Shown here one piece after another: positions 7,761-46,181 of a stretch of DNA of 64,000 nucleotides. The notes under the pieces were generated by a model that did no database searches, had not been told where the DNA came from, and saw nothing but the letters and a program-made list of their open reading frames with translations. The translations under genes and the position numbers were made by a program. The stretch's first letter is position 1. Every line of letters starts with the position of its first letter. Source of the DNA: a virus (lineage: Duplodnaviria > Caudoviricetes); IMG/VR virus record IMGVR_UViG_3300027747_002427. One strand, given 5' to 3'.

Positions 7761-7761
7761 T

Positions 7762-8656: not shown

Positions 8657-8666
8657 AAGTTTTTAT

Positions 8667-8695
8667 ATAATATATTAATTATGGCCACTAGTCAA
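8667..8695 (-). promoter_or_regulatory. sigma70-type promoter TTGACT-N17-TATTAT, 10 nt before ATG 8656
   Basis: Read from reverse complement. Confidence 0.6.
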
Positions 8696-10123: not shown

Positions 10124-10135
10124 TAATAAAATAAA

Positions 10136-11236: not shown

Positions 11237-11238
11237 AA

Positions 11239-15373: not shown

Positions 15374-15382
15374 ATATCTTAA

Positions 15383-16094: not shown

Positions 16095-16123
16095 ATGTTT
16101 TATTTTTACTTAATATGTTGTGT

Positions 16124-18201: not shown

Positions 18202-18229
18202 AATTTTATTTGTTTGTTGTTTAATTGAA

Positions 18230-23140: not shown

Positions 23141-23141
23141 A

Positions 23142-24792: not shown

Positions 24793-24820
24793 ATTATATC
24801 GAATCTTGCTCATTAGGCAA
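24793..24820 (-). promoter_or_regulatory. sigma70-type promoter TTGCCT-N16-TATAAT, 8 nt before ATG 24784
   Basis: Read from reverse complement. Confidence 0.65.
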
Positions 24821-30826: not shown

Positions 30827-30859
30827 ATATTAAATTTATAAACTATTGTTAAAAGGCAA

Positions 30860-31643: not shown

Positions 31644-33455
31644 TTAAACTAACATCAACCTTGTTTTACCATTTATCTTTTCTAATTGAATGATGTTATC
31701 TAACCCGTTCTTGATAACGGATTTGTTGTGAGAGACTATATAAACACTTTCGTCATAGTCTTCAACTCTTGTTTTTAAAATTTCCAATATCTTTTCTGCT
31801 CCCTTCTCATCTACTGCAGAATCTAATAATTCATCATACATACTAAGAGAAAAGGATGTCCCGGTTTGTGTTCTTAATACATCTTGAAACATAAAGAGAA
31901 TAGCTAAATCAATTCTTTTACGCTCTCCTCCACTAAAATTAAAATATGAACATTCTTTGCCTTGATCATTGTATATGGATTCTTCAAATATCTCATTAAA
32001 TTCACACTTACAAGGAGCTTCTAGAATTTGTAAATAATGATTAAGTCTAGAATTTAAAAGATTTAACATCTTTTTAATAATGTATGTCTTTACACCTTCT
32101 TCCGAAACAACATATTTGGCTGTATCTAAAATGGTTAATTTCTTTTGTATTACTTGTATTTGTTTTTCAGATTCTAAAATTTCAGTTTCTACATTATCTA
32201 TAAGCTCCAATACACCATCTTTTTCATTTCTTAGAGTGGAGATTTCTTCAAGAATTTCTACATTTCTTTTTTCTAATTGGCTCAATTCTTGTATAGCAAG
32301 AGCTAAATCACCCTTATCTTTATTGAGAGCCTTTATTTTTTGTTTAGTAGATGTAATAGCTGATTCTACTTTGGTTTCTTTTTTATTTAAATCTTCTAGA
32401 ATCTTTCTCAAAGGTTCTTTTTTATCTTGAAGGGGTATTAATTTATCTTCTATTTCTTTTAAACAATCTTCTAAATTAGCATTTTCATCATACTTTCTTT
32501 TACAAGTAGGACAAGATGAATCTGTTTTTAATTTTTCTTTTTGCTTTTCTAAAGTTTTAGATTCATAATTAATTTGTAAAAGTTCTGTATTAGTATCAGA
32601 AGCAGACTTTTTAACCTTCTTTAAGCCCTCTTCAAGAGCTTCGAGATCAGATTCTTTGCTCTGTATCTCTTTGTCCAAATCATTAATTCTTCCATTCACT
32701 GAATCTTGATTCGATACATTTTTAATCTTTTGGTTATTAGCTTCTATTTTATCTTTTAAAGCTAATATTTTATTATTTTTAACTTCTTCATTTTTATCTG
32801 CTTGGCTCTTATATAGTTTTAAATTTCTTTGTTGATCTATAAATTTAGATCCAATTATATCATTTTCTTTTTTAATATCATTATAATCTGATCTTGCCTG
32901 TAAAAGCATTTGACCAAAAATACCTAAATTTAAAATACCTTCTACAAATTTTCTTTTGTCTACCTTCTTTTGTGCCATGAAAGGTAAGGTATTATTAGCT
33001 GTCATAATGACCGCATTTTGAAATACCTCTTCATTAGCTCCTATTAATTCTTTGATATATTCATTGGTCTCAGGCATTGTTGAGTGCGTCATGTCTACAT
33101 CTTTTTGATCAACATGAGAAAATACACTCACTTTACTTGGTTCTAATGATCTCTTAATAGTATAAGGAATAGTTTGACTGCCATTAAAAATATTAAAACT
33201 TAAAATCACTTCACAACCTTTTTTAGTTTGATGGTGTATAATTTTATCTTTTTTAATATCTCTCATGGTGACTCCAAATAAACACCAATATAAAGATTCA
33301 ATCACAGTGCTTTTACCTACACCATTACGACCTCCCTTATCACGATTTTCTCCAGTAATAAGGTTAACACCTTTTTGAAAAGATATCTCTAGAGGATCTT
33401 CTCCTACGGAAAGAAAATTTTGTATTTTGACACTATTAAAAATAACGCTTCTCAT
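31644..33455 (-). CDS. SMC-like recombination nuclease ATPase (gp46/SbcC)
   Basis: GRNGVGKST, coiled coil with CPTC hook, FSGGE, YDELLD. Confidence 0.95.
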   Translation of the reverse strand: MRSVIFNSVKIQNFLSVGEDPLEISFQKGVNLITGENRDKGGRNGVGKSTVIESLYWCLFGVTMRDIKKDKIIHHQTKKGCEVILSFNIFNGSQTIPYTIKRSLEPSKVSVFSHVDQKDVDMTHSTMPETNEYIKELIGANEEVFQNAVIMTANNTLPFMAQKKVDKRKFVEGILNLGIFGQMLLQARSDYNDIKKENDIIGSKFIDQQRNLKLYKSQADKNEEVKNNKILALKDKIEANNQKIKNVSNQDSVNGRINDLDKEIQSKESDLEALEEGLKKVKKSASDTNTELLQINYESKTLEKQKEKLKTDSSCPTCKRKYDENANLEDCLKEIEDKLIPLQDKKEPLRKILEDLNKKETKVESAITSTKQKIKALNKDKGDLALAIQELSQLEKRNVEILEEISTLRNEKDGVLELIDNVETEILESEKQIQVIQKKLTILDTAKYVVSEEGVKTYIIKKMLNLLNSRLNHYLQILEAPCKCEFNEIFEESIYNDQGKECSYFNFSGGERKRIDLAILFMFQDVLRTQTGTSFSLSMYDELLDSAVDEKGAEKILEILKTRVEDYDESVYIVSHNKSVIKNGLDNIIQLEKINGKTRLMLV

Positions 33456-34363
33456 TTATTTTCTAAAATCCAATTTTTAACATCTATGGTAGGTTTGTAA
33501 TTTAAATATTTTTGAGCTTCTGTTATATCAGCTAATGTATGTTCTGCTTCACCAGCTCTTGCTGGAATATATTCAATATTATTATCGATAAGTCTAGCTA
33601 TATCTTTTATTGATATATTTTGACCGGTTCCTATATTGTAAAGATTTCTACCTTCATGGGTTTCTGTCTCTGCTGCTAATATATTAACGTTTGCTATATC
33701 ATATACATGAACAAAATCTCTACATTGTTCTCCATTTCCTACTATTGTTAAAGGTTCTTTATTAGCTTTCTGACGTAAAAATATTCCTATAACCGGAGCA
33801 TAAGGACCTGTTCGAGGACTTCTTTCACCGAAAACATTAAAGTAACGAAATACAATTGTTTTCAATCCAAACATTTTTGTATACATTTCTACCATTTGTT
33901 CTCCGGAATATTTTGTAGCAGAATAAGGATTTAAACAATCTATTGGTTCGTTTTCATCTGTAGGTAATTTACATAAATTACCATAAACTGAGGATGTAGA
34001 TGAATATATAAACTTCTCTATATTGTATAATCTACTATATTGAAGCATCTTAGTAGTGCCAACAGCATTTATTTCTACAGCTCTTATTGGATTAAGAATA
34101 GCTGGTCCTATTCTAGACTCAGCTGCAAGATGAAAAACATATTTTACATTTTCAAAAATCTCTTTATGAGGCAAAGAATCATCATTGATATCAAATTTGT
34201 AATATGTTGCTAAATTATTAAAGTAAAATTTTTCATTAGACTCTGCTGAAAGATTGTCTATAACAAGAACTTCATAACCCTTTTCCAGGAGTTTATCTAC
34301 TAAATGACTTCCTATAAAGCCGCATCCTCCGGTTACTACTACTTTATTTTTTAAATTGCTCAT
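33452..34363 (-). CDS. NAD-dependent nucleotide-sugar epimerase/dehydratase
   Basis: TGGCGFIGS, SSTSSVYG, YSATK, RYFNVFG. Confidence 0.93.
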   Translation of the reverse strand: MSNLKNKVVVTGGCGFIGSHLVDKLLEKGYEVLVIDNLSAESNEKFYFNNLATYYKFDINDDSLPHKEIFENVKYVFHLAAESRIGPAILNPIRAVEINAVGTTKMLQYSRLYNIEKFIYSSTSSVYGNLCKLPTDENEPIDCLNPYSATKYSGEQMVEMYTKMFGLKTIVFRYFNVFGERSPRTGPYAPVIGIFLRQKANKEPLTIVGNGEQCRDFVHVYDIANVNILAAETETHEGRNLYNIGTGQNISIKDIARLIDNNIEYIPARAGEAEHTLADITEAQKYLNYKPTIDVKNWILENK

Positions 34364-35075
34364 GTATTAATGTTTTAAATTTAGTTGTACTCCATCCATG
34401 ATCTCTGTTTATAAAAACTTCTGGTATGTTTAAATCTTTACCAGTATAATCTCTTTCTCTGTAATCATCACCCATGATTCTTATATCAAAAGAATTTTCT
34501 TTTAAAATATTATAAAGATCCTTTTCCGTTTTATAAACAATTATATCATTAATATACCTTATAGAAGACAAAATTTCAACTCTTTCTTCTACAGAATGAA
34601 TAGGTTTAATTTTTTCTGAGCGATCTAATGAAGGATCTTCATGGAGTAAAATAGTGAGATGATCACAATAATTCTTTGCTTCTTTAAATGCTTGAATATA
34701 ACCAAAATGAATTACATCAAAAGACCCTATCAATACACCTTTCTTTTGATTTATAGGTTTAAAATATGAATCACTATGAATTGCTTTATCATCTATAAAA
34801 AAGTCATAAGGAGGTTTGCCTAATATTAATTCATGATATTTTAATCCCCAATAATTTAATTGGTTTTTTGTAAGTTGGTAATACTTGTCTAACACTAAAG
34901 CTAGATTACCTTTAAATTCTGTGGTACCCCTTGCAGTATATATTTTTATATAATGACCCTTATCATAAAGATCATTAACTATTTTTATGCGTTCTAAAAT
35001 AGGTTCTGCATTGATGTAGCCTTTACTTTTAGTAATACATAAAGTATTATCCAAATCAAAACAATATATTTCCAT
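34344..35075 (-). CDS. Fusion: HAD phosphatase (capsule-biosynthesis type) plus HIGH-family nucleotidyltransferase
   Basis: N-half FDLDNT...YTARG...GKP..DFFIDDKA; C-half GSFDVIHFGY...KPIHSVEERVEIL. Confidence 0.85.
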   Translation of the reverse strand: MEIYCFDLDNTLCITKSKGYINAEPILERIKIVNDLYDKGHYIKIYTARGTTEFKGNLALVLDKYYQLTKNQLNYWGLKYHELILGKPPYDFFIDDKAIHSDSYFKPINQKKGVLIGSFDVIHFGYIQAFKEAKNYCDHLTILLHEDPSLDRSEKIKPIHSVEERVEILSSIRYINDIIVYKTEKDLYNILKENSFDIRIMGDDYRERDYTGKDLNIPEVFINRDHGWSTTKFKTLIHEQFKK

Positions 35076-35076
35076 A

Positions 35077-36060
35077 TTAATTAGTAAAATTACCTAAGAT
35101 CATAGACCCGTGATTATCTAATCCAAAATGCAATCTAGGGAATCCATTATCATTCATAAAAGCATCTAATTTGTCTTGATTATTAGGACAATATAATAAT
35201 AAAAATCCACCACCACCAGCTCCAATTATTTTTCCACCTAGTACATTAAAGTATTTCTTGGTATGTTCATAAATGTTATCTACAATAGGTACAGAAATCT
35301 TATTAGATAATTGTTTTTTAAGTTGCCAATACTCATCCATTAAAGAACCATAGGATATAAAATCACCTTCTCTTAGATATGAGATTGTTTTTAATCCATG
35401 TTCTTTAACTATTTTTAAAATGTCTTCTGAATTACCTTTAAGTTTCTGTTGATCTGAAAGTACTTCTGATGCATCTCTCTTAATGTTTAAATAATAAACA
35501 CACAAATGTGATACAAAATTATTAATCAAGCTTTGATTTAATTTTAAATCTTCTACATTTACTTTACCTTCTGTATCTATGTTAAGAATTTTTATTCCTC
35601 CATATGCTGCTATATATTGATCCTGTTTACCTACTGGTTCTTTGAGTCTATTAATTTCAATATCACAAGCTTCTTCTGCTAGTATATGTGGTTCTCTGTT
35701 AAGTTTTTTATATTCCCTAATGCAATTCAAAGTGCCTACCAAGAAACTGCCAGAAGAACCTAATCCTGTATTGGACGGTAAATCAGCACAGGAATTAATT
35801 TCACAGCTATTATTAATCTTATGAATTAACAATGCTTCCTTGGCTCTATGATTTTTTAATTCTGAAACATCATTTACTATCTCTATTTGAGAGTAACGAA
35901 GCTTTAATTGTTTTTCAAAATGATCTGGTTTATATGTCAAATAGATATATTTGTCTATAGCCATAGATACCACCAATCCTCCGTGCTTAGAATAAAAGCT
36001 TGGTAAATCTGTACCACCACCACCTAATGTTATTCTTAAAGGAGTTCTACTAATAATCAT
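35077..36060 (-). CDS. hddA: GHMP kinase, D-glycero-alpha-D-manno-heptose-7-phosphate kinase-like
   Basis: RTPLRITLGGGGTDLPSFY, DLPSNTGLGSSG, GKQDQY, GGKIIGAGGGGF. Confidence 0.85.
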   Translation of the reverse strand: MIISRTPLRITLGGGGTDLPSFYSKHGGLVVSMAIDKYIYLTYKPDHFEKQLKLRYSQIEIVNDVSELKNHRAKEALLIHKINNSCEINSCADLPSNTGLGSSGSFLVGTLNCIREYKKLNREPHILAEEACDIEINRLKEPVGKQDQYIAAYGGIKILNIDTEGKVNVEDLKLNQSLINNFVSHLCVYYLNIKRDASEVLSDQQKLKGNSEDILKIVKEHGLKTISYLREGDFISYGSLMDEYWQLKKQLSNKISVPIVDNIYEHTKKYFNVLGGKIIGAGGGGFLLLYCPNNQDKLDAFMNDNGFPRLHFGLDNHGSMILGNFTN

Positions 36061-36761
36061 ATGTTCAAATTAGATGATTGTGCATCGTCATAGAACATTT
36101 TAACAGTTTCTAAAGAAAAGTCATCTAAATTTTTATCTTTTAATTTTAATTTAGGTAATATATCTGGGGTTACGGTAATAATATCACAACCGCATTTTTC
36201 TGCTTCGTATACATTATAAACACTACGAGTGCTAGCCCATAAAGTTTTAATAAACGAATTATTATTTTTTAAAAACTTTGAAGTATTTAAAATTATATGA
36301 GTCGGATCTACACCTGTGTCCGAAATTCTTCCAGCAAATATAGAAAGTATAAGAGAATGTTTTGTGTCTATGGATTTATCTAAAATGTTTTTAATTTGTG
36401 CTTCTGTAAAAATAGCTGTAACATTAATGTTTATTCTTTTTTGATTCATTTTATAAATCAAATCAGCTGTAGATTTACCTTTAGTATTTGTTATCGGTAC
36501 TTTAACAAATATATTATTTCCGTATTCTGAAATTTTTTGTATTTGATACTCCATTTCATTTAATTCATCTGCAAAGATTTCAAATGAAAAGGGAAGATCT
36601 GTAATTTTATTAGTTATTTCTTTTATAAAAGGTACATATTCTGTAATTCCAGCCTTTTTCATAAGACTAGGATTAGTAGTAAACCCAGTTACCCTTTTAT
36701 TATTTTCATAAATGTCAAAAATTTCTTTAACATTAGAAGTATCCGCATATATTTCTATCAT
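36057..36761 (-). CDS. tal: Transaldolase (short TalC/FSA type)
   Basis: YADT, GFTTNPSLM, FVKVP (Schiff-base Lys), INVTAIF, SIFAGRI, LWASTR. Confidence 0.92.
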   Translation of the reverse strand: MIEIYADTSNVKEIFDIYENNKRVTGFTTNPSLMKKAGITEYVPFIKEITNKITDLPFSFEIFADELNEMEYQIQKISEYGNNIFVKVPITNTKGKSTADLIYKMNQKRININVTAIFTEAQIKNILDKSIDTKHSLILSIFAGRISDTGVDPTHIILNTSKFLKNNNSFIKTLWASTRSVYNVYEAEKCGCDIITVTPDILPKLKLKDKNLDDFSLETVKMFYDDAQSSNLNI

Positions 36762-37474
36762 ATTAAATTTTTATTGATAAAAAATAACCCGGCTTCTGCT
36801 ACATGAGGAATTAAATGACCTATTTGTGAATTGGTATTACATGAAACTCCTCTTATAGAACGAGTCAAAGGGTCTTCATTTTGCCAAGCTCTAAAGTCAT
36901 TGAAATCTTCTAGAGCTAAATCTCTAAGATATTTAGTTTCTGCTGGATTATATACAAAATTATAAGATGACAATTCATTAATCCAATATTCATCTGTTTG
37001 TTCATTAACATGATGATATCCACCTTGACCTGGAACTGCATGAGTGATTAATAGATATTTACATTGAGCAAAATTTTCAAAAAAGAAATGTCTATATTCT
37101 GCATTGACGTGTTCTACAAATTCAACAGACCAACATAAATCAAAATTTTCATTTAATTTCAAAGAACCCAAAGAATAATCATGAGCTATTATATCATCAG
37201 GATAAAATGAAAGCTTTTGAACCTTTTCAGATCCTTCTACACCTTTAATTTTTAAATTTAAAAAATCTTTAAAATATTTTAAATGAAATCCAAATCCACA
37301 ACCAATATCTAAAACAGATTTAATATAATATTTGTTTACAATATATCTCCACATTTTAGGACATTCTGTGCCTGGATCTCCTAATAAATTACACCCACCT
37401 AAATGTCCATCCTTAAATGTAACATTATCTACACATTCTGGATTATTTTCTAAAGCTTTGTTTTGTAAATTCAT
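36758..37474 (-). CDS. Class I SAM-dependent methyltransferase
   Basis: SVLDIGCGFG, FDLCWSVEFVEHV, GGYHHVNEQ. Confidence 0.85.
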   Translation of the reverse strand: MNLQNKALENNPECVDNVTFKDGHLGGCNLLGDPGTECPKMWRYIVNKYYIKSVLDIGCGFGFHLKYFKDFLNLKIKGVEGSEKVQKLSFYPDDIIAHDYSLGSLKLNENFDLCWSVEFVEHVNAEYRHFFFENFAQCKYLLITHAVPGQGGYHHVNEQTDEYWINELSSYNFVYNPAETKYLRDLALEDFNDFRAWQNEDPLTRSIRGVSCNTNSQIGHLIPHVAEAGLFFINKNLI

Positions 37475-38040
37475 TTTTGTGTAAAATAATTAACTACTAA
37501 ATGTAAAATAATACCCTGCCATTCTTCTGCATGAGCTGTAATTCTTAAATCATTTATTACTGGTATTAATATACAAGCGTCTGATACTTTTTTCGAATAA
37601 CCACCATCTCTACTAACAACAGACAGTATTTTGCTTTTAACTTTTTTAGCATATTTAATAGCATTTACTAAATTTTTTGAAGTAGTATCAGTTCCTCCAC
37701 CAACAGAAAATACAATTATACCATCTTTAGAAGATAGCTTGCTGCCTCTCAACCAATTAGCATAACTATCCTCCCAAGATTCGTCATTGATTCTTGCGGT
37801 TAATTCAGCTACATTATCTGTTACAGCGTAAGTTTCTATCCCAAGAATTTTTCTAAAATCATTTACGGCATGACTAGCATTAGCAGCACTCCCTCCAACA
37901 CCTAAAATAAACAATCTTCCTTTGCTTTTTTTAATTTTATCTATATTAACAATGAAATTAGATATAGAATCAATATTGATTTGATCTATTATAGATTTGG
38001 TTTCTATAAAATATTGATCTATATATTGATTTAATTTCAT
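37471..38040 (-). CDS. gmhA: SIS-domain sedoheptulose-7-phosphate isomerase
   Basis: GVGGSAANASHAVNDF, ELTARIND, FSVGGG, HAEEWQGIILH; start revised to MKLNQY. Confidence 0.85.
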   Translation of the reverse strand: MKLNQYIDQYFIETKSIIDQINIDSISNFIVNIDKIKKSKGRLFILGVGGSAANASHAVNDFRKILGIETYAVTDNVAELTARINDESWEDSYANWLRGSKLSSKDGIIVFSVGGGTDTTSKNLVNAIKYAKKVKSKILSVVSRDGGYSKKVSDACILIPVINDLRITAHAEEWQGIILHLVVNYFTQK

Positions 38041-38041
38041 A

Positions 38042-38710
38042 TTAAATGATTTCAAAACAACCTTGGCTGCAACCTAAATTTTGATAAATCAAAGGCTTGT
38101 AATCTAATCCGGTTTCTAATAAAAATTCAGCGAATACTTTGATTTCATGTAAACGAAAATCTTCATAGTCGTTAATTTCATCAAATACAATAATAGTTCC
38201 TTTTTTTATTCTAGATCCTAGATATTTAAAAATTGTCTTAGCTGATGAATATAAATCACTATCAACATGAAGAAATGCTACATCTCCCTCAAATTTCTTG
38301 ACAAAAAGAGGAAGTGTATCTTCAAAATATCCTTTTATAAGCTTTACATTATCTGGCCAAGGTTTCCAATTTACTGGAAGATCACTATTAAACATGGAAT
38401 GATTATCACCCACAATATAACCAGGAGGTATTTGCCCATTAAGATTAAAAGCTCCTTTAGGATTGTTAGCATCCCAATGCTCTGGCAATCCTTCAAAACA
38501 ATCAAATCCGTAAATCTCTTTCGTGGTTTTTCTAGAAAATTGTTCTATACTTCTTCCGGTGAAGACTCCAAATTCTAACCATAATCCTTCTATTTTAACT
38601 TCGTCTGCGCATGCTAAATGGAATGTTTCGTGAAAATCCCAATTTGCTATTATTCTTGCTTCGGTTTTTAATCTGTGATCTATTTCGTCTATTTTTTGAT
38701 CTAGTGTCAT
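38042..38710 (-). CDS. TylF/MycF-like sugar O-methyltransferase
   Basis: LEFGVFTGRS, GFDCFEGLPE, KGYFEDTLP, LHVDSDLYSS, IVFDE. Confidence 0.85.
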   Translation of the reverse strand: MTLDQKIDEIDHRLKTEARIIANWDFHETFHLACADEVKIEGLWLEFGVFTGRSIEQFSRKTTKEIYGFDCFEGLPEHWDANNPKGAFNLNGQIPPGYIVGDNHSMFNSDLPVNWKPWPDNVKLIKGYFEDTLPLFVKKFEGDVAFLHVDSDLYSSAKTIFKYLGSRIKKGTIIVFDEINDYEDFRLHEIKVFAEFLLETGLDYKPLIYQNLGCSQGCFEII

Positions 38711-38717
38711 ATTATAT

Positions 38718-38745
38718 ATAATAGGACAAATTGTTAAAAAATCAA
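38718..38745 (-). promoter_or_regulatory. sigma70-type promoter TTGATT-N16-TATTAT, 7 nt before ATG 38710 (heads the heptose sub-operon)
   Basis: Read from reverse complement; occupies one of only two sizeable gaps inside the island. Confidence 0.6.
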
Positions 38746-39833
38746 TAGTTTAAATTATCATATAAAGAGATTATATTCTTTTCTATCACTCGATAATCGT
38801 ATTTTTCCCAATATCTGTTTAAGGTTTTTTCTGATTTTTCTTTATAATAATTTTTATTATCCCGAAGAGAAATCATTTCTGATACATATTCTTCAAAAGA
38901 ATAAGCCATTTTACCACAGCTTTCTATTTGTTCTACATGACCCATATTCAAAGCTGGGTGACTAATAACTGGTTTACCATGATACATTGCTTCTATTATA
39001 GAAGCCGAACATACTTCTCCGTCTGATCTAGCATGAGCATATACATCTATGCCAGCTAAAAAATCATGTATATCTTCTACAGAACTTGTAAATTCCAAGA
39101 AATAAACATTTTTTAATCCCAATTCTTTAACAGTATTGATATGTTCTTGACATCCTCCTAAAATAACAAAACAAGTTTTATCGTTTTGTACTTGCTTGTA
39201 AGCTGCTAAAGAATTAGGAGAAAATATATCACTTCTATTGGCTTGGTGAAAACCATATATAAAAATATCTTCTTCTATATTTAAAAGTTTTCTTAGATTA
39301 GATGGTTTTTTTTCTGGTACTTTAACTATAGAAGGAATTATTTCTGCCTTTGAGATATTACCACCATTACTAGCCCATTTTTCTGCTTGCCATTTACATA
39401 AAAGAATTGCCTTTTTAATATTGGGTTTGTCTTCACCGTTAAAACTATGAATACTATCAATTATAGGACAATTATTAATAATGTTGAAAGGATATTCTGG
39501 ATAACCTCCTCTCGCGGTTTGTATAAAATCATAATTAGTTTCTTTAAATAAATCCCAAAAATCCGTTCCTATCCATTTATAAGGTTCGACATTACCTATT
39601 TTATGATCTACATGAATCTTAATAGTATTAATACCTTGGTCTTCTATTAATTGTTTTCTTACTGGGTCATTATCCGGATGTACAAAACTAGAATTTAAAA
39701 AGGGTGCTGCATTAGTATAAAAATAATCTATCTGATATCTATCTTTAGGTAATAAACATGCCAAAGTTTGAAGATATTTTTCAGTTCCTCCAGAAGCTAA
39801 TCCGGCAAATTTAATAAATGCTGCTTTTTTCAT
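38742..39833 (-). CDS. GT4-family glycosyltransferase
   Basis: GGTEKY, DVYAHARSDGEVCSASIIEAMYHGKPVI. Confidence 0.85.
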   Translation of the reverse strand: MKKAAFIKFAGLASGGTEKYLQTLACLLPKDRYQIDYFYTNAAPFLNSSFVHPDNDPVRKQLIEDQGINTIKIHVDHKIGNVEPYKWIGTDFWDLFKETNYDFIQTARGGYPEYPFNIINNCPIIDSIHSFNGEDKPNIKKAILLCKWQAEKWASNGGNISKAEIIPSIVKVPEKKPSNLRKLLNIEEDIFIYGFHQANRSDIFSPNSLAAYKQVQNDKTCFVILGGCQEHINTVKELGLKNVYFLEFTSSVEDIHDFLAGIDVYAHARSDGEVCSASIIEAMYHGKPVISHPALNMGHVEQIESCGKMAYSFEEYVSEMISLRDNKNYYKEKSEKTLNRYWEKYDYRVIEKNIISLYDNLNY

Positions 39834-40540
39834 TATCTTTGACCTAAATCTAGTGTTGATTTATACAATCCGTTTCTTGATCCTTGAGAAGCTATTGAAG
39901 GATACCACCAATATGTTTTGGCATTAAATTTATATAATTGATAAGCTATTTCCCAATCAGAAACTAATTGAAAAGGAATAGCTGATGAATATATTTTAGA
40001 TGCTATTTGAGGTTTTAAAAGATAAGCTTCTGCGCAATTAGTAGCCGGGTGATTCATTAAATAAGAATTTTTACTAATCTTTTGGCTATTAAAGATTTTT
40101 TCATTTTGAAAATTTATTCCACACCCTTCACCGAGGAATATAGCATCCCAATCTGTCGGAGTTTCTGAAATATACTTTTTATATAAGTCATTAAAATTAT
40201 TATTAAATAAAACATCGTCTTCTAAAATTAATCCAAAATTAGGACATTCCAAAGAAACCTTTTCTATTGCTTTTAAATGTTTTATTGTACAAGATATTTC
40301 TGGTAAATTTAAGGTCCTAAATATATGAATATTAGAATCCCATAAAGGGTCTATTTTTTGTTTAAATTTAATTTCATCTGCTAGATAATATTGTTTTAAT
40401 ATATCTGTAGATAAATCTTCTTGATCATATTCTTTTATAAATTCATAAGGAATTTTAGAATTTTCTAAAAAGGAAATGACTTTAGAATATCTATCTGATA
40501 ATTTTGTATAATGAACTATATAAATTTTATCTGGTTTCAT
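39833..40540 (-). CDS. GT25-like glycosyltransferase
   Basis: SCTIKHLKAIE, LILEDDV, AEAYLL. Confidence 0.75.
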   Translation of the reverse strand: MKPDKIYIVHYTKLSDRYSKVISFLENSKIPYEFIKEYDQEDLSTDILKQYYLADEIKFKQKIDPLWDSNIHIFRTLNLPEISCTIKHLKAIEKVSLECPNFGLILEDDVLFNNNFNDLYKKYISETPTDWDAIFLGEGCGINFQNEKIFNSQKISKNSYLMNHPATNCAEAYLLKPQIASKIYSSAIPFQLVSDWEIAYQLYKFNAKTYWWYPSIASQGSRNGLYKSTLDLGQR

Positions 40541-41433
40541 TTTAATATTTTCTCTTTAAAGAATTTTAACACATTTTCTGGTAAAATAAAGTCTGGAAAT
40601 TTATTATCTATAAACCAAGGTTCATTTAATATTTCTTTATACTTTTCTTCGTTATTATCTATTTCTAAAATTTTATCTATAAATTCTTCTTCTGAAGAAT
40701 AATCATGTAAACTTAAAAATGATTTTTTATTAAAATCTTCTCCTACTCTTTCATTGCCCCAATATAAAGGTATTGTATTAACAAACATTGGATGTATTAT
40801 CTTTTCTGTTGTATATCCGTCACTGGATGTATTTTCAAAACTAATATTAAATTTAAAAGGCTTTAATGCTAAAATTTTCCAAATCTGGTCTCCACGACCT
40901 TGTATTCTTTGATTTATATTATTATATAAACCACCCATACAGTGAACTTCTTTTTTAGAAAGTAATTTAGGCACAAAACTTACTCTTTTTCCTTTAGGTT
41001 GATTAGCTATAAAACTGCAGAAATGATGTTTGTTTACTTTAACATCATTTTTATTTAAAAGAAATTGTGGGTCGTGCAAATATGATTGATCCCTATCATC
41101 ATCATGAGGTCTATTAAACCAATTTATATGCATTCCCCACAAAGGAAATCGGTAATTTCTATCGTCTTCTATATGTTCAAAAGTAAATGCATAATGACAT
41201 TGATTAAAATCTGGTTTACTACATTCCCCTGTATAATATATTTTTTTACATCTTTTATTATTATATTTAAAATGTTGTGGATTACCTGTATAATCATAAG
41301 AATAAAACAAAAGATCTGGGTCTTCGGAATCTAATATAACTTTATATTCTTTAGATAATAAATTATAAAAATAATTGTCATTATCTTTAAAATTAGGCCA
41401 AAAGTCTACAAAACAAATTTTTAAAGTATCCAT
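40537..41433 (-). CDS. GT10 alpha-1,3/4-fucosyltransferase-like
   Basis: FKFNISFENTSSDGYTTEKI...IPLYWG signature. Confidence 0.85.
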   Translation of the reverse strand: MDTLKICFVDFWPNFKDNDNYFYNLLSKEYKVILDSEDPDLLFYSYDYTGNPQHFKYNNKRCKKIYYTGECSKPDFNQCHYAFTFEHIEDDRNYRFPLWGMHINWFNRPHDDDRDQSYLHDPQFLLNKNDVKVNKHHFCSFIANQPKGKRVSFVPKLLSKKEVHCMGGLYNNINQRIQGRGDQIWKILALKPFKFNISFENTSSDGYTTEKIIHPMFVNTIPLYWGNERVGEDFNKKSFLSLHDYSSEEEFIDKILEIDNNEEKYKEILNEPWFIDNKFPDFILPENVLKFFKEKILK

Positions 41434-42185
41434 TTTTTAACATTATTCCAATCTTGACCGCCGGCTAAATGTCTTATGATTACATTTTCTCTAGATACTT
41501 TATTAATATTAAATTGGCATGAGCTTTCTCCTTCCCATTCTGTTACATTAAACCCTGTGGGAAATATAGAAACGTGTTCATTTAATTCTTTTAAAGAATA
41601 AACTATATCTTCATTTAATTCACTATGAAAACCATTATTAGGATATTCCCAAAAAGATTTATCTGAATGTCTTTTAATACCAGCTAAGCTATACCAACTT
41701 GCTTGTTCTCTAAATTCATGCCAAAAACTAGAAGCGGTTTGAAATCTTTCATGAATTGAAATCTTGTTATTTAATTTATTGAATCTTTCTTCTGATAAAA
41801 TATTGTTAATTAAATTTCGCGACCACTCATTAACTTTAATACTATACCAGCCCATACAATGTGTGTTGCCGGAATCTATACAATAACCAAAAGATTTACT
41901 TGGCTCTAATGAATGTTCTGTATTAACAAAATACATATCAGCATCTATATGAGCTAATATATCTCCGTCCTCAAGTTTGTTACTCTCTAATAAATCTTTG
42001 ACTATAGTAAATTTCCACCATGTAGGATTGCCTCTATATAAGTCTAAAGGATTTTCATTGCCAATGACTACGTATTTAAATCCATGTTTATCACAATACT
42101 CTTTATTTCTTGGTGAAATAATTTCATCAAAAATCTGCTGTCTGTGATCATTATATTTTGCTATAACAAAAAGTACTTTTTTCAT
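41421..42185 (-). CDS. GT34-like (galactosyl/xylosyl) transferase
   Basis: YCDKHGFKY, WWKF, HIDAD, REQA, IRHLAG. Confidence 0.6.
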   Translation of the reverse strand: MKKVLFVIAKYNDHRQQIFDEIISPRNKEYCDKHGFKYVVIGNENPLDLYRGNPTWWKFTIVKDLLESNKLEDGDILAHIDADMYFVNTEHSLEPSKSFGYCIDSGNTHCMGWYSIKVNEWSRNLINNILSEERFNKLNNKISIHERFQTASSFWHEFREQASWYSLAGIKRHSDKSFWEYPNNGFHSELNEDIVYSLKELNEHVSIFPTGFNVTEWEGESSCQFNINKVSRENVIIRHLAGGQDWNNVKKWIL

Positions 42186-43066
42186 TTTAATGAATCTAAT
42201 ATATTATCACACATTCCTTCTAATGTAAAGTATTTTGGATATATTTTTTTTATTTTAGAAAGCATATATTCTTGTCTTTTATTTGATATAGATTTTAATA
42301 TATTATCTAGATTGTCAATATCTTTAAAATCTACTAAAATAGCTATATCATCCCAATTTACTTTATTAGCAAATGGTATAAAGGGTTTGTTATAATATAT
42401 ATAAACTGGAATAGATCCCAATTGCATTGCTTCATATAATCGAAAGCTTGTTGCACCATATCCACGCGGACAAAGAGTAAATTTACTGCGAGAAGTTGTT
42501 TCTATAAAAAGATTCTGTCTTTCTGTTTTAACATCTGGAGACCAGTGTTTGGGTTTTAATACATATTCTTCTTTGTTTATCAAAACCTCTAACATTTTCA
42601 TTCTAATATTATGAGATACAGAAGCCCAAGTATTAGGAATATTTTGTGTGACACTTCCTACGAAACTACAAAATATATCTTTGGGTAAGTCTTTAATATC
42701 TTGAATGGAACTGCATATTAAAGGTATAGGAATTGTGTTGGGTACATTACCTCCAGCTGAAAAATGTATTGTATTGAGAGGGAACTCTTGGTAAGGCCCA
42801 TCATCATGTTGAGATACTGTAAAATACTTTTTACTTTTATCTAGGCTGTTTAGATCTTGTTGTAAATCATGTAGCAGATGAGTTCCACCTAAATATAATT
42901 CAGTCCAAAAAACGGGAATATATTCATATCCCGTTGTTTTAAATTTATCTATATTTTTTACATAATAATCATAAAAATATTCTTCTAAATATTTTCCTTG
43001 ATGATAAAAGGGATATGGATTAGTCTGTGTAACTATTCTATATTTTTCAAACTTTTCTAGAATCAT
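42182..43066 (-). CDS. Exostosin/GT47-like glycosyltransferase
   Basis: SKFTLCPRGYGATSFRLYEAMQLGSIPVYI. Confidence 0.85.
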   Translation of the reverse strand: MILEKFEKYRIVTQTNPYPFYHQGKYLEEYFYDYYVKNIDKFKTTGYEYIPVFWTELYLGGTHLLHDLQQDLNSLDKSKKYFTVSQHDDGPYQEFPLNTIHFSAGGNVPNTIPIPLICSSIQDIKDLPKDIFCSFVGSVTQNIPNTWASVSHNIRMKMLEVLINKEEYVLKPKHWSPDVKTERQNLFIETTSRSKFTLCPRGYGATSFRLYEAMQLGSIPVYIYYNKPFIPFANKVNWDDIAILVDFKDIDNLDNILKSISNKRQEYMLSKIKKIYPKYFTLEGMCDNILDSLK

Positions 43067-43739
43067 ATTTTTCTTTTACTTTATCCAATAATTTAATTTT
43101 ATTACTAAATGGTGTAGTCCAATTAGCATGATGTATTGTTATATTTTCTGGTATATCAAAATCTTCTACGCCCTGCCAGGTACCAGATGAATTTGAAGGA
43201 TTGGTTCTTTTCAAAGCCAATTCACCATAAGTCCAATAATCTTTGGATAACATCTTCCATTTAAATGATATTTTTTCTAAATTATTAAAATTGCTTATAA
43301 TATAATTAAAACAAACTTGTTCTTCCGGAAATTTCTCTAAATTACCTTCAACAGTTTTTAAAAAAGCTCTTGTTTTAGGGGTAGATCTCATTATAAAAAA
43401 CCCAGTATTAACTCCACCTCCATAATCATTTTGAAAAGCAGCATCATAATCACCTAGTTGTTGTATTACGTCTTTTGAAAAAGGTTTAAAAAATTGAATA
43501 TCTGGATCTGAAAACATAAAGCATTCTCCGTCTTTTGTTTCATAAGCTGCATCTATAAAACATTGAACTTTATATTTCATAGTATCTCTCCACCCATCGC
43601 TTTGAAATTCAGAACTAGGACATACTTGTGGTTTAAATTTAACTACAAGTTCTATATCAGTGTCAAAGGGAAAGCTTTTTATAAAGTAATCTTTAAACAT
43701 ATCATAATGAGATTCTGTAAATACGGTATAAAGTTTCAT
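43047..43739 (-). CDS. GT77-like nucleotide-diphospho-sugar transferase
   Basis: FSDPDIQFF, NTGFFIMRS, EQVCFN, HHANW. Confidence 0.75.
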   Translation of the reverse strand: MKLYTVFTESHYDMFKDYFIKSFPFDTDIELVVKFKPQVCPSSEFQSDGWRDTMKYKVQCFIDAAYETKDGECFMFSDPDIQFFKPFSKDVIQQLGDYDAAFQNDYGGGVNTGFFIMRSTPKTRAFLKTVEGNLEKFPEEQVCFNYIISNFNNLEKISFKWKMLSKDYWTYGELALKRTNPSNSSGTWQGVEDFDIPENITIHHANWTTPFSNKIKLLDKVKEKYDSRKV

Positions 43740-43805
43740 TGTTTGTAATTACCTTTATCGTCTCTCAAGTCTACAAGCTCACTTTTATTTTTTCGTAAAA
43801 ACCAT

Positions 43806-44576
43806 TTAAAGACATTTTAGATATTTTGCTTCTTGTTCTAATTCATCAGGTAAAGAATATAAAAATTGTCCGTATGGCAACCTTTTAATAAGGTAAGAAT
43901 ATATAAATTCTTTCCAGTTTTTATGATAAGGGGATTCTTCCCAAAGTTTGCTATTATAGATAGCTTCTGGAGAAGATTCATTCCAATTTAAATCATGTTT
44001 TTCATGACAAAGAAAAACACTTTTATTACCTAAAAAAGAATTACTTCTATTATACATTTCTAAAGCAAATGCAACATCCCATAAATGTTCAGCGTATATA
44101 TAATCTTTAAAATATTGTTTATTGTTTAACCACCAATTCTTTTTTACAGCCCAAGCATCAAATCCGGCTATTTCTATTCTAAAGGGTATGATATTATCTA
44201 AACCTGTTATAGGATAACAATCATGTCTTGAAAATGAATATGTATCATATTCTCCTTTTATTAATAATTTAATAATATTTTCTGTTAATAAAACATCACT
44301 ATTTAAAAACAAAAAATAATCACAATCGGTAGTTGATAATATATCAAAAAAATCTTTAGCAATGGGTTTTTCTGATTTAGAATTTGTAATATCTTTTGCT
44401 TTTCTTTTTAAAAAAGGAAGATGATTGAATCCTAAAGCATAATTTTTTTCGTTTTCATATGTAATATTATATAAAGATATATTGTTATGTTTTGAAGCGA
44501 GCTTATTTAAGACTTCTATACAAAAATCTTGTCTTTTATAATCTTTAAAAACATTAATTCCTATTGAAATTTTCAT
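43806..44576 (-). CDS. GT-A-like hypothetical glycosyltransferase
   Basis: YFLFLNSDVLL, AGFDAWAV, HLWD; start revised to MKISIG; C-terminus possibly frameshifted (see findings). Confidence 0.6.
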   Translation of the reverse strand: MKISIGINVFKDYKRQDFCIEVLNKLASKHNNISLYNITYENEKNYALGFNHLPFLKRKAKDITNSKSEKPIAKDFFDILSTTDCDYFLFLNSDVLLTENIIKLLIKGEYDTYSFSRHDCYPITGLDNIIPFRIEIAGFDAWAVKKNWWLNNKQYFKDYIYAEHLWDVAFALEMYNRSNSFLGNKSVFLCHEKHDLNWNESSPEAIYNSKLWEESPYHKNWKEFIYSYLIKRLPYGQFLYSLPDELEQEAKYLKCL

Positions 44577-45358
44577 GGTCTTATACCTTTTAAATATTCT
44601 ACAACCTCTTCCGGATGTTTGCAATTAATACTATTAATTTTTACACCATGCTTATTTGTAAAATAATTTATAGTATCTTGAATTACATCAGCTCTAGACC
44701 CATCCGGCCTATCGGCTTGAAGCCTACTTGTTGCAACTGGATTGTTTTCTATATATTCATCTGAATTAGTTATATCTGCAAAATACCAAAAAGGAGCTAC
44801 ATTAGGATTTAAAATAGATTGTCTAAATGCCATGTCTGCATCAAATAAATCTCTCATTTTTCCATCATAAAGTCCACATTTTATAAAACAAGATTTATGG
44901 TGATATGTAAATTCATTACACATATTTTGATAAAAAGACACCCCAAGTGTTTCACTATAATTGACTTGAAGAGTTGGAGTTCTAGCACCTGGGTGACCAG
45001 CTTGATCACTCATACTAACATATGAAAAATAATTCAATCCACTAATTTTAGATGTTTCTATATATTTTTTAAAAATATCTACATTCTTAATAATCATATC
45101 ATCCTCTATAAGGAATATATGTTCACAATCTTTATTCATTAGAAATGTTATACAATCATTTCTACAAACTGAAGGATATCTATTTTTATTATGTTGAATC
45201 CAATCACAATTATAAGAATTTTTATATTTGTCTCCTCCGTTAACAACTACAATTTCATCAATTATATTAGCATCTTTTAAACTATCAAAAAGAGTTTTAA
45301 AATAATTTTCTGAATTGTAGGTAGTAATACCTACACCTATTTTTTCATTATTAAACAT
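44573..45358 (-). CDS. GT2-like glycosyltransferase (paralog 1)
   Basis: KIGVGITTYN, VVVNGG, HIFLIEDD. Confidence 0.8.
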   Translation of the reverse strand: MFNNEKIGVGITTYNSENYFKTLFDSLKDANIIDEIVVVNGGDKYKNSYNCDWIQHNKNRYPSVCRNDCITFLMNKDCEHIFLIEDDMIIKNVDIFKKYIETSKISGLNYFSYVSMSDQAGHPGARTPTLQVNYSETLGVSFYQNMCNEFTYHHKSCFIKCGLYDGKMRDLFDADMAFRQSILNPNVAPFWYFADITNSDEYIENNPVATSRLQADRPDGSRADVIQDTINYFTNKHGVKINSINCKHPEEVVEYLKGIRP

Positions 45359-46181
45359 GATTTTTATATATTTGCTTTAAACTCTCTATTACTTCTTTTT
45401 CTGAGTAATTTTTTTCAATAGGTCCATATCCTTGTATTACACTAAAATTATTTTTTTGAATAAAAATATCTAGAGCCTTTTTAAAATTCTCTTGAAAATT
45501 AGATTCATTTCTAATCTTGCTTTGTTGATGATCAGGTACGATATCTTTTAAATATTTTTTAGAATCTTTAATATCTGCAAACCATCTAAATGGTGGGTGA
45601 TACCCTTTTTTTATTATTTGATATGTATGGTCAACATGCTCTAAAGCATTATAAAAATTCTCGTCCATTAAACCACAATCTTTTAATACATCTATATGAT
45701 AATAACTAAGGGCTCCTAGTATATTAGGATACAAGTCTATTTCTGTATGACCATAATTGACTGTTTTTCTAATAGTAGGATTTCCATAAGGATCTATGTT
45801 ATGATTGCCATGTAGACCAAAATTAAAATGTTTTATACCAGTAGCTTTGGAAGTATTAATATAAGCTTCAAATATATTATTATCTACAACTTCAATATCA
45901 TCTTCCATTAAAAATATATGTTCACAACCAATTTTTATTAAATGTTTTAAAGCTAAATTCTTTGCAACGGCAACACCTTCTTTATTTTTAGTCTTTATAT
46001 AATGAACATTATTTTCTTCACCTTGCTCTATAAGATTTCTTACATGCTCTTCTCCATCATCTACTATTACAAAACTAATATTGTGATTATCTTTAACTGA
46101 TTTATAACTCTTTTGAAAGAATTCTGGTCTATCGCAGGTTATTAATCCAACACCAATCTTACACGATATTGCTTTTTGCAT
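45351..46181 (-). CDS. GT2-like glycosyltransferase (paralog 2)
   Basis: KIGVGLITCDR, IVDDG, HIFLMEDD, ALEHVD. Confidence 0.85.
   Translation of the reverse strand: MQKAISCKIGVGLITCDRPEFFQKSYKSVKDNHNISFVIVDDGEEHVRNLIEQGEENNVHYIKTKNKEGVAVAKNLALKHLIKIGCEHIFLMEDDIEVVDNNIFEAYINTSKATGIKHFNFGLHGNHNIDPYGNPTIRKTVNYGHTEIDLYPNILGALSYYHIDVLKDCGLMDENFYNALEHVDHTYQIIKKGYHPPFRWFADIKDSKKYLKDIVPDHQQSKIRNESNFQENFKKALDIFIQKNNFSVIQGYGPIEKNYSEKEVIESLKQIYKNHV

Follow-up and report, generated by a model that had tools for sequence, protein, structure and literature searches.

An operon of a freshwater T4-like phage probably encodes a mixed-type route to a nucleotide-activated heptose

Background

The pathway to GDP-D-glycero-alpha-D-manno-heptose (GmhA, HddA, GmhB, HddC) is described for Aneurinibacillus thermoaerophilus and for the capsules of Campylobacter and Burkholderia (Kneidinger et al. 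2001, as cited in PMC7378029). Two phage systems are close to the one considered here. First, a UDP-D-arabinofuranose pathway (AfhE/AfhF) is encoded by the E. coli phage HY126 (RB69 gp51, gp52:53, gp55; PDB 9iqw; PMC13326640); in this isomerase-kinase-phosphatase-transferase pathway of T4-like phages, AfhF strips the distal phosphate from a sugar 1,5-bisphosphate. Second, the 'contig 53' cluster of a metagenomic phage (HAD/kinase fusion, cytidylyltransferase and glycosyltransferase), expressed in E. coli, adds heptose to DNA (bioRxiv 10.1101/2023.12.21.572611); of the phage sets for heptose activation that include a HIGH-type transferase, it alone is backed by experiment. In cyanophages, heptose genes have already been annotated, and genes flanking the module described below have been called LPS heptose genes (PMC7378029). 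Here we describe a seven-gene cassette from an uncultured freshwater T4-like phage. Judging from its sequence, the cassette is likely to give the phage its own pathway to a nucleotide-activated heptose, which would feed soluble glycosyltransferases encoded just upstream.

Results

The window, that is, the whole stretch of 64,000 nucleotides that was analysed, carries the T4-like markers UvsY, gp47-like nuclease, gp46-like ATPase, PolB, gp32, UvsX and gp41-like helicase. Seven minus-strand ORFs fill positions 33452-38710 and are read from 38710 down to 33452 (Table 1), in the order TylF-like methyltransferase, GmhA-like isomerase, second methyltransferase, transaldolase, HddA-like GHMP kinase, fusion of a HAD domain to a HIGH-fold nucleotidyltransferase, and SDR epimerase. 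This order, given in an earlier note on the same DNA, is borne out by the ORFs and their family matches. Adjacent genes overlap by 4-20 nt or are spaced by 1 nt, and the cassette sits in a glycan island flanked by the phage gp47 and gp46 homologues. It is under purifying selection (dN/dS 0.03-0.14 against a relative at 80% identity). The promoter of its own that had been attributed to this sub-operon finds no support. The only gap near the cassette start is 31 nt long (38711-38741), and the TTGATT and TATAAT within it are separated by 23 nt; a sigma-70 scan returned 106 sites, fewer than in shuffled sequence (119); and the same junction in L008, the closest diverged relative, measures only about 8 nt. 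Nor is the unit closed downstream, since the epimerase gene overlaps the gp46 homologue.

Table 1. Features of the cassette, in order of transcription, and of the adjoining glycan island
Feature	Coordinates	Strand	Details
TylF-like SAM-dependent O-methyltransferase, first cassette gene, probable sugar tailoring	38042..38710	-	222 aa
GmhA-like sedoheptulose-7-phosphate isomerase (putative), SIS fold	37471..38055	-	194 aa from TTG, or 189 aa from ATG five codons on
Class I SAM methyltransferase, variable tailoring gene	36758..37474	-	238 aa; PF08241 E 1.3e-5
Transaldolase, proposed S7P supplier	36057..36761	-	234 aa, TAL_FSA
HddA-like GHMP sugar-1-kinase	35077..36060	-	327 aa; PF00288 + PF08544
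HAD phosphatase domain of fusion, proposed heptose-1,7-bisphosphate 7-phosphatase	34758..35075	-	aa 1-106
HIGH-fold nucleotidyltransferase domain of fusion	34344..34757	-	aa 107-243; PF01467 E 2.3e-13 (CTP_transf_like)
GalE-like SDR nucleotide-sugar epimerase	33452..34363	-	303 aa; PF01370 E 1.4e-56; stop region overlaps gp46 homologue by 4 nt
GT4 (GT-B) glycosyltransferase, candidate product user	38742..39833	-	directly upstream of cassette; PF13692 + PF00534
Rest of glycan island	39833..46926	-	GT25, GT10, unknown 254-aa protein, GT47, GT77-like, GT2-like, other unknowns (Pfam)

All scores of the cassette against the GmhA, HddA, TagD and HldE-II models lie far under the NCBIfam trusted cut-offs, and the GmhA and HddA assignments are to be read as distant memberships. 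The best family of the kinase is HddA (NF049969; 128.8 bits, far short of the 600-bit cut-off). Its top four PDB matches are all heptose kinases (3k85, 4usk/4usm (WcbL) and 4n3o; 98-112 bits), with fucokinase at 65-68 bits, and the GHMP motifs PLRIxLGGGGTD, GLGSSGS and GAGGGG are present. By sequence, then, it is a distant HddA member whose nearest characterised relatives are heptose kinases. To our knowledge, all characterised GHMP sugar-1-kinases yield the axial (alpha-D) phosphate.

The isomerase, whose homologues start at the later ATG, is likewise by its residues and matches a distant member of the GmhA family. It reaches 27.0 bits against SIS_2 (PF13580), at the cut-off, and 47.4 bits against TIGR00441 (gmhA), for which the equivalog cut-off is 209 bits; all of its 11 PDB sequence matches are phosphoheptose isomerases, and family searches returned no KdsD/API match. 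Aligned with E. coli GmhA, it retains the active-site residues GxGGS, His61, ND, the Ser/Gly loop and the C-terminal His180, with Glu65 replaced by Asp and Gln172 by Glu in all phage forms.

The transaldolase (PF00923, E 3.9e-33, 115.5 bits) is by its scores of the TIGR02134 type (272.6 bits, just below the cut-off of 281.95), unlike the talC type of cyanophages (talC/FSA model, only 79.7 bits). In alignment with the T. acidophilum enzyme, the Schiff-base Lys (VKVP), the Asp, the Glu and the TAL-type Phe are kept; FSA typically has Tyr at the position of this Phe. The gene lies within the operon in four phage lineages (relatives L004, L008 and L116 have it), and in one complete relative the cassette copy is the sole transaldolase. 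In SAR11 glycan clusters a transaldolase adjoins a GmhA-like gene and a gene of the HAD family found in the fusion. Because of its place inside the operon and beside GmhA in SAR11, the earlier reading of this enzyme as a supplier of sedoheptulose 7-phosphate (S7P) gains support, to which its non-talC type and its uniqueness in the complete relative add. Most variants of the module are without it.

The N-terminal half of the fusion is a minimal HAD domain of the EcbF/BcbF-AfhF family (TIGR01689, 45 bits), with 71 bits and 39% identity to AfhF, the D-arabinose-1,5-diphosphate phosphatase of phage HY126 (9iqw). It falls outside the GmhB/HisB-type HAD subfamily, the GmhB model giving no match. The catalytic residues (DxDxT, T47, K87, D95/D96) are invariant or almost so among 28 homologues, so that its role may be analogous to that of GmhB despite the different subfamily.

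The C-terminal half, like the HAD half, retains catalytic residues among the homologues, but HFGY replaces HxGH (family consensus HPGY). Tyr therefore stands where the HIGH motif has its second His, a residue that is normally catalytic. HxGY is present in 93 of 100 viral homologues, while a few members of the fusion family retain HAGH, as in HldE. TagD was rejected as an identity for this domain on its score (TIGR01518, 57.9 bits; cut-off 165.4), the HFGY motif, RDHGWSTT in place of the RTEGISTT of TagD, and its placement outside the TagD clade. HldE domain II or HldC was rejected on HFGY, the score (TIGR02199, 54.2 bits; cut-off 181.5) and the tree, in which the HxGY transferases form a clade apart from HldE-II with support of 99/97; support for grouping them with TagD is weak (86/62), and the branches concerned are long. 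The nearest structure to the predicted one (pLDDT 89.5) is TagD (1coz), at 34% identity; identity is 17-20% to HldC and 24% to HldE domain II. The rfaE_dom_II model matches the domain in all 28 family members (best E 3.5e-22). On this sequence evidence, the HxGY clade is mostly viral and is neither TagD nor HldE/HldC. It follows that the nucleotide cannot be called, although we would slightly favour CTP over ATP, and the CDP- or ADP-linked alpha product envisaged in the earlier note is not inferable from a transferase that makes up a clade of its own. In phages, 51 closely related HxGY transferases occur solo, with neither a kinase nor an isomerase gene within 8 kb; the substrate of the clade need not always be a heptose phosphate made by the phage.

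The epimerase scores higher with the GalE model (171.5 bits) than with heptose_epim (TIGR02197; 128.7 bits, cut-off 274.6). Its top PDB matches are GalE-type 4-epimerases (best 4zrm, 192 bits), HldD is not found among the top 60, and the motifs STSSVYG and YxxxK occur without the dehydratase Asp-Glu pair. An HldD-type enzyme is thus rejected, and some other nucleotide sugar could be the substrate of the epimerase. The TylF-like methyltransferase (PF05711, E 3.9e-12; PF13578 (Methyltransf_24), E 1.8e-9) has homologues of 52-69% identity in the cassettes of L004, L008 and L116. The class I methyltransferase is missing from L004 and L008 or swapped there for FkbM-type methyltransferases, and has homologues at 43-44% in L115, L139 and L144.

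Upstream, the GT4 gene has homologues (46-77% identity) at the same place in L004, L008, L115, L116, L142 and L145, and the u254-GT25-GT10-GT4 block co-occurs with the cassette in five lineages. No membrane segments are predicted in any of the 17 island proteins (19-residue hydropathy mean <= 1.45). A GT9 heptosyltransferase, considered as a partner of the cassette, is not supported, as none occurs in the related genomes.

The cultured cyanophage SynMITS9220M01 and about 30 viral contigs carry kinase, GmhA-type isomerase, fusion and epimerase together, while the fusion is nearly absent across 185,579 cellular genomes. The GHMP kinase adjoins the fusion in every viral locus with enough upstream DNA (28/28); a GmhA-motif ORF is found in 31 of 33 fusion-bearing viral loci, and in 29 of 32 the epimerase gene comes after the fusion. 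No fusion-bearing viral locus has a PfkB kinase. The GxGTRL motif of HddC-type enzymes is absent from all six frames of the 64-kb window, and PF00483 (NTP_transferase) from four viral records of relatives, of which two are 100% and 94% complete. The pairing of an HddA-like GHMP kinase with a HIGH-fold transferase, pointed out in the earlier note, is therefore confirmed. Rather than being a peculiarity of this phage, it is part of a widespread, conserved viral module that recurs in many aquatic phages.

Discussion

In the proposed route, the transaldolase would convert F6P and E4P into S7P, from which the GmhA-like isomerase would make heptose 7-phosphate. The GHMP kinase would phosphorylate C1, presumably giving the alpha anomer by family precedent; the AfhF-like HAD domain would take off the 7-phosphate; and the fused HxGY domain would join heptose 1-phosphate to an NTP. 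The NDP-heptose would then be epimerised by the GalE-like SDR, and the two methyltransferases may O-methylate the sugar before or after transfer. As had been claimed, each step from F6P and E4P to NDP-heptose has a candidate enzyme; we infer every substrate and product, as well as the anomer, the nucleotide and the acceptor. As acceptor, a protein or glycan of the phage or the host, modified in the cytoplasm, is the most likely.

The cassette resembles the GDP-heptose pathway in its order of SIS isomerase, GHMP anomeric kinase, HAD phosphatase and nucleotidyltransferase, and in a kinase nearest to HddA and WcbL. It differs in that HddC has a GT-A fold whereas the phage transferase belongs to the HIGH/Rossmann-fold HxGY clade, in a phosphatase that is of the AfhF/EcbF minimal type rather than GmhB and is fused to the transferase, and in the added transaldolase, GalE-like epimerase and two methyltransferases. 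With the HldE/HldD system it shares a HIGH-fold transferase of the cytidylyl/adenylyl-transferase superfamily, a bifunctional fusion of two steps and a final SDR epimerase; however, its kinase is GHMP and not PfkB, its transferase is fused to a phosphatase instead of a kinase and has HxGY instead of HxGH, outside the HldE-II clade, and its epimerase is GalE-like and not HldD.

Among phages, the AfhE/AfhF pathway likewise combines isomerase, 1-kinase, distal phosphatase and nucleotidyltransferase in T4-like genomes, with homologous phosphatases. There, however, a pentose is made from Ru5P by a KdsD-type isomerase, an APH-like kinase is fused to a GT-A transferase, and the product is put on 5-hydroxycytosine in DNA; the relatives of the studied phage show no ThyA-type hydroxylase. 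The 'contig 53' cluster, compared here by description, also has a HAD phosphatase, a kinase and a cytidylyltransferase-like enzyme, all required for heptose. It differs in a HAD domain fused to an APH-like kinase, in its reliance on host GmhA, in having no transaldolase, epimerase or methyltransferase, and in its target, DNA made 5hmC by MT/TET enzymes (heptosyl-5hmC). By annotation, genes 204-207 of SynMITS9220M01 share the core of kinase, isomerase, fusion and epimerase. The fusion there, annotated as hypothetical, has HPGY and 44% identity to the one studied here; that cassette has no transaldolase or TylF gene.

The cassette might instead make an ordinary product with analogous enzymes, the GHMP kinase and HxGY transferase being non-orthologous replacements for HldE. 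The family-wide match to rfaE_dom_II and the HAGH of a few members are consistent with this. So is the related cyanophage P-SSM2, whose genes 309-311 (annotation only) comprise a clearly HldE-like PfkB kinase, an HldC-like transferase with HPGH, and a separate HAD protein (gp311) of the same family, 46% identical to the HAD domain; and papers on cyanophages interpret such genes as LPS genes (PMC7378029, PMC7029224). Nevertheless, we regard this as unlikely. The HxGY clade stands apart from HldE-II and never occurs with PfkB, GT9 is lacking in the related genomes, the epimerase is not HldD-like, and the methyltransferases and about ten soluble glycosyltransferases suggest a custom glycan. The axial phosphate made by characterised GHMP sugar-1-kinases also argues against an ordinary product.

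A product other than heptose is quite improbable: a pentose (an AfhE/AfhF-like arabinose route), a hexose, an octose (transaldolase with a C5 acceptor), or the product of a glycerol-3-phosphate cytidylyltransferase. All family scores are under the cut-offs, the sole characterised relative of the HAD domain works on arabinose 1,5-bisphosphate, TagD is the nearest solved structure to the transferase domain, and JGI annotates many homologues as glycerol-3-phosphate cytidylyltransferase. On the other hand, the isomerase is GmhA-type and keeps the GmhA residues, the best relatives of the kinase are heptose kinases, the transferase clade is distinct from TagD, and the co-located transaldolase fits S7P. 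A glycerol-phosphate role is unlikely for a transferase that is fused to a sugar-bisphosphate phosphatase and lies in strict synteny with the kinase and the isomerase.

Finally, it is highly improbable that an HddC-type guanylyltransferase in the rest of the genome or in the host uses the alpha-heptose 1-phosphate to finish a standard GDP route while the HIGH domain serves otherwise: SynMITS9220M01 does have a second GHMP kinase, beside a GT-A transferase (GGRGTRL), that is nearer to the studied kinase (130 vs 70 bits), and the search of the phage's own genome for hddC was confined to the window, but GxGTRL and PF00483 are absent as described above and the HIGH domain is under purifying selection and is fused to the phosphatase expected to produce its substrate.

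Conclusions

A phage-made activated heptose remains our preferred reading. Starting from ordinary sugar phosphates, the operon most likely yields a seven-carbon sugar that is tailored and nucleotide-activated, by means of mixed enzyme types.

Gene content and setting of the cassette

The gene order in the earlier note was recovered exactly: seven minus-strand ORFs, encoding a TylF-like methyltransferase, an isomerase, a second methyltransferase, a transaldolase, a kinase, a phosphatase-nucleotidyltransferase fusion and an epimerase. Pfam and NCBIfam assign the two methyltransferases to TylF/Methyltransf_24 and to class I. Neighbouring genes overlap by 4-20 nt or lie 1 nt apart, and the epimerase gene overlaps the gp46 homologue. 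The element is a T4-like phage, because the glycan island is bordered by gp47 and gp46 homologues and genes for UvsY, a helicase, PolB, gp32, UvsX and a DnaB-type helicase lie nearby. The public runs with matching DNA are freshwater metagenomes, with no RNA dataset for expression among them, and megablast of the DNA against GenBank phages gave no match.

The cassette had also been credited with its own promoter. Its sole gap is 31 nt long with badly spaced hexamers, and L008, the closest diverged relative, has about 8 nt at this place. Scans for sigma-70 promoters and terminators returned sites no more numerous than in shuffles. With no sigma-70 excess and zero occurrences of the T4 late-promoter motif TATAAATA within the island, the promoter claim was dropped. 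In the whole window TATAAATA has 5 occurrences, whereas shuffles predict about 20 (100 of 100 shuffles had at least 5). Given this depletion, the late promoters of the window phage may differ from those of T4. Besides the probable 7-deazaguanine genes of the table, the window encodes ThyX, and a 438-aa protein beside the radical-SAM gene has no Pfam match and is 72% conserved in L008.

Coordinates of the cassette, its surroundings and related loci
Record	Coordinates	Feature	Details
Window	33452-46926	Glycan island	15-kb run of 17 genes; cassette at its downstream end
Window	38710-33452	Cassette	Minus strand
Window	34344-35075	Fusion gene	
Window	46923-47975	gp47 homologue	Metallophos; island border
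Window	31644-33455	gp46 homologue	AAA_23/SMC_N; other island border
Window	38742-43739	Glycosyltransferase block	GT77-like, GT47, 254-aa unknown protein, GT10, GT25, GT4; beside the heptose cassette
Window	56480-57421	Rejected GT9 candidate	
Window	57418-58242	Sulfotransferase	PF13469, PF00685; among fibre-size genes; downstream partner of 56480-57421
Window	29510-31630, 22625-23167, 17356-18264, 24794-25465	Probable 7-deazaguanine genes	Among replication genes; Fer4_12 radical-SAM protein (possible QueE), PTPS/QueD-like gene, FolE2; same set of spans covers 438-aa protein and ThyX
SynMITS9220M01 (L006)	7992-9995, 14605-16861	Two parallel sets in one cultured cyanophage	GHMP kinase, small cupin-like ORF, GT-A transferase (HddC-like); GHMP kinase, GmhA, HAD-HxGY fusion, epimerase
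L147 (IMG/VR contig)	7423-10210	Solo HxGY transferase	Between FkbM methyltransferase and MGS-like gene; GT25 and Methyltransf_24 near
L047 (Pelagibacteraceae single-cell genome)	6105-11307	Glycan cluster	HAD, GmhA-like SIS, transaldolase, two SDRs, 512-aa protein
L194 (Escherichia phage LF82-33)	4471-4857	AfhF-type HAD phosphatase	Labelled 'phosphoheptose isomerase'
L198 (P-SSM2)	7086-7430	AfhF-type HAD phosphatase, gp311	Labelled 'phosphoheptose isomerase'

A conserved viral module

To our knowledge, there are only two established routes to nucleotide-activated heptose. The ADP-beta route uses a PfkB kinase and HldC; the GDP-alpha route uses a GHMP kinase and HddC. The claim that the phage pairs a GHMP kinase with a HIGH-fold transferase was borne out well beyond the window. 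Relatives of the fusion form 342 clusters at E <=1e-5, and the full-length fusion is present in 32 of the 80 best viral-contig loci. A GHMP kinase lies near it in all 28 loci with at least 1.5 kb of upstream DNA. An ORF with GmhA motifs stands directly upstream in 31 of 33 and an epimerase homologue downstream in 29 of 32, and a PfkB kinase is near the fusion in none of 32. The same core occurs in the cultured cyanophage SynMITS9220M01, as genes 204 (kinase), 205 (isomerase), 206 (fusion) and 207 (epimerase); its fusion, annotated as hypothetical, is 44% identical and carries HPGY. Among 185,579 prokaryote species, one genome each, only four full-length fusions were found, all on short MAG or SAG contigs, including two from single cells of Prochlorococcus; the solo HAD domain, unlike the fusion, is common in cells. 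Finally, dN/dS is 0.03-0.14 for the six genes shared with a relative at 80% amino-acid identity. The synteny, the near-absence from cells and the dN/dS values therefore mark the hybrid as a module that is conserved, under selection and essentially viral. It is frequent in T4-like and jumbo phages of aquatic habitats.

The fusion protein

The 243-aa fusion joins a HAD domain of the EcbF/BcbF type to a downstream CTP_transf_like domain. Its N-terminal 106 residues contain the full set of HAD catalytic motifs, with little or no variation across 28 homologues, and are 39% identical to PDB 9iqw. This entry is AfhF, the D-arabinose-1,5-diphosphate phosphatase of E. coli phage HY126. Matches by tblastn in Mosigvirus phages lie inside the arabinosyl-5-hydroxycytosine cluster, between the nucleotidyltransferase/kinase gene and a peptidase gene. 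AfhF takes the distal phosphate off arabinofuranose 1,5-bisphosphate, after the isomerase and 1-kinase and before the nucleotidyltransferase (PMC13326640). For a pentose, this step corresponds to that of GmhB. In cyanophage P-SSM2, gp311 is of the same HAD family (46% identity); its neighbours are gp310, a PfkB kinase, and gp309, an HldC-like transferase with HPGH. The Mosigvirus HAD gene is mislabelled 'phosphoheptose isomerase'. The same label stands on AfhF-type HADs in Yersinia, Proteus and Acinetobacter phage records as well as on the two phosphatases in the table, and is a propagated misannotation in many phage records.

The transferase domain has HFGY at the HxGH position of the superfamily and ends in RDHGWSTT. 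HxGY is the norm of the family (93 of 100 viral homologues; consensus HPGY). The AlphaFold model is confident (pLDDT 89.5). Pairwise identity and structure favour the TagD side: 34% identity and TM 0.82 against the TagD structure (1coz), 17-20% and TM 0.66-0.70 against that of B. pseudomallei HldC, and 24% identity to E. coli HldE domain II. By HMM score, TagD and rfaE_dom_II are tied, both for the window protein and for the family. The maximum-likelihood tree included three PGAP-named TagD proteins, drawn from PGAP-annotated plasmids, E. coli HldE-II, P-SSM2 gp309 and a SAR11 NT-PfkB protein. In this tree the phage transferases form a separate clade (support 99/97) of fused and solo forms, with a few HxGH forms, which joins TagD weakly (86/62) and with long branches. 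Because the phage clade is separate and its join to TagD is of this kind, the domain is, as judged from sequence, neither a TagD nor an HldC. The HxGY clade goes with GHMP kinases, and the PfkB-bearing P-SSM2 has the HldC-like enzyme; this distribution fits an HxGY transferase adapted to the product of a GHMP kinase.

Solo HxGY/GWSTT transferases of 130-140 aa, 48-61% identical to the C-terminal half of the fusion, were seen in at least 51 phage loci (including L147, L009, L011 and L146-L193). All of these loci lack HAD, GHMP and SIS genes within 8 kb of the transferase.

Isomerase, kinase, epimerase and transaldolase

The equivalog scores for GmhA, HddA, TagD, HldE-II and HldD all fall far under the trusted cut-offs, and the corresponding cassette proteins are distant family members. 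Since these scores mark distant members only, residues and specific relatives were examined. The isomerase is SIS_2/gmhA-like in Pfam and NCBIfam, and all 11 of its PDB matches are phosphoheptose isomerases. An alignment with E. coli GmhA shows that GxGGS, His61, ND, the Ser loop and His180 are retained; all phage forms carry Asp for Glu65 and Glu for Gln172 (E. coli GmhA numbering). The best-scoring family of the GHMP kinase is HddA (129 bits). Its top PDB matches are heptose kinases (3k85, WcbL (4usk/4usm) and 4n3o; 98-112 bits), and fucokinase matches at 65-68 bits. An HldD type is not supported for the epimerase: HldD is not in its top 60 PDB matches. It is a GalE-like SDR (4zrm, 192 bits) with the STSSVYG and YxxxK motifs, and the dehydratase Asp-Glu pair is absent.

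The transaldolase (PF00923, 115 bits) is of the TIGR02134 type (272.6 bits), not the talC/FSA type (79.7 bits). It keeps the Schiff-base Lys with the Asp and Glu, and also the Phe by which transaldolases differ from FSA. It is outside the universal core and occurs in the clade of the window and the viral loci L008, L004/L005 and L116, invariably between isomerase and kinase. The genome of G003, a complete relative, encodes no other transaldolase. In Pelagibacteraceae glycan clusters, a 50%-identical transaldolase directly follows a 46%-identical GmhA-like gene, together with the same HAD family. One of these, L047, has the GmhA-like gene, the transaldolase and the HAD, then two SDR genes and a gene for an NT-PfkB protein of 512 aa. 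This synteny with GmhA-like genes and the non-talC type support, as association rather than proof, the earlier suggestion that the transaldolase supplies sedoheptulose 7-phosphate. In the 512-aa protein the transferase domain is N-terminal and PfkB C-terminal, the reverse of the HldE order. Two other loci, L046 and L111, show the same association of SIS, transaldolase and HAD.

Is HddC encoded elsewhere?

A search for hddC had been suggested. In the window, a GxGTRL-type motif occurs in no frame, and PF00483 has no match in four related viral records, two of them from genomes that are 100% and 94% complete. HddC may nevertheless be encoded elsewhere in the genome of the window phage, because SynMITS9220M01 has another GHMP kinase, adjoining a GT-A transferase, at a separate place in its genome.

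Potential use of the product

A block encoding the 254-aa protein, GT25, GT10 and GT4 accompanies the cassette in five lineages, and in these the GT4 gene always adjoins it. The GT77-to-GT4 block is also conserved beside the cassette in the diverged large phages L004, L008, L115, L116 and L145, one of which is a 414-kb contig. Membrane-like segments are absent from all 17 island proteins. Since the glycosyltransferases are soluble and eukaryote-like, the acceptor would probably be a protein, or something else that is soluble, glycosylated in the cytoplasm.

DNA is another potential acceptor. A metagenomic phage cluster places heptose on DNA, and, for heptose activation by a phage set of HAD, kinase and HIGH-type transferase, it is the best precedent from experiment (bioRxiv 10.1101/2023.12.21.572611). 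In the related records, no ThyA-type hydroxylase or hydroxymethylase was found, nor any Tet_JBP domain, the latter in a search without a positive control and thus weak evidence. Because neither ThyA-type nor TET enzymes were seen in these records, DNA heptosylation is the less likely model.

The GT9 candidate was rejected as a partner of the cassette, having no Pfam GT9 match and no PDB sequence match. Its sole lead to GT9 is PF01075 in 15% of one related Atlas cluster; both GT9 and this protein are absent from the related cassette-bearing records.

Significance

Phage pathways of analogous design for arabinose, and the heptosyl-DNA cluster, have already been studied, and cyanophage heptose genes have been annotated as LPS genes (PMC7378029; PMC7029224). 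In the literature searched, there was no paper on the module of GHMP kinase and HAD-HxGY fusion, nor on a transaldolase embedded in it. Taken together, the observations would allow a bolder reading, which we consider rather unlikely as a whole. The HxGY clade would be a dedicated alpha-heptose-1-phosphate nucleotidyltransferase in a third, essentially viral NDP-heptose route. Its product would be new to biology, for example a CDP-linked D-glycero-alpha-D-heptose, 4-epimerised and O-methylated, which soluble GT10, GT25, GT47 and GT77-type enzymes would use in the cytoplasm to build a custom glycan on proteins of the phage or its host. In a sense, this would resemble giant viruses, which glycosylate their own capsids. 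The module itself joins a GHMP kinase to a phosphatase-transferase fusion of a separate, largely viral HIGH-fold clade. It would thus add a third route to nucleotide-activated heptose and would give a function to hundreds of proteins labelled 'glycerol-3-phosphate cytidylyltransferase' or 'hypothetical'. It would also suggest a role in glycan synthesis, rather than in the rewiring of carbon flux, for some phage transaldolases. Because the module is present in a cultured cyanophage, the prediction is open to bench work.
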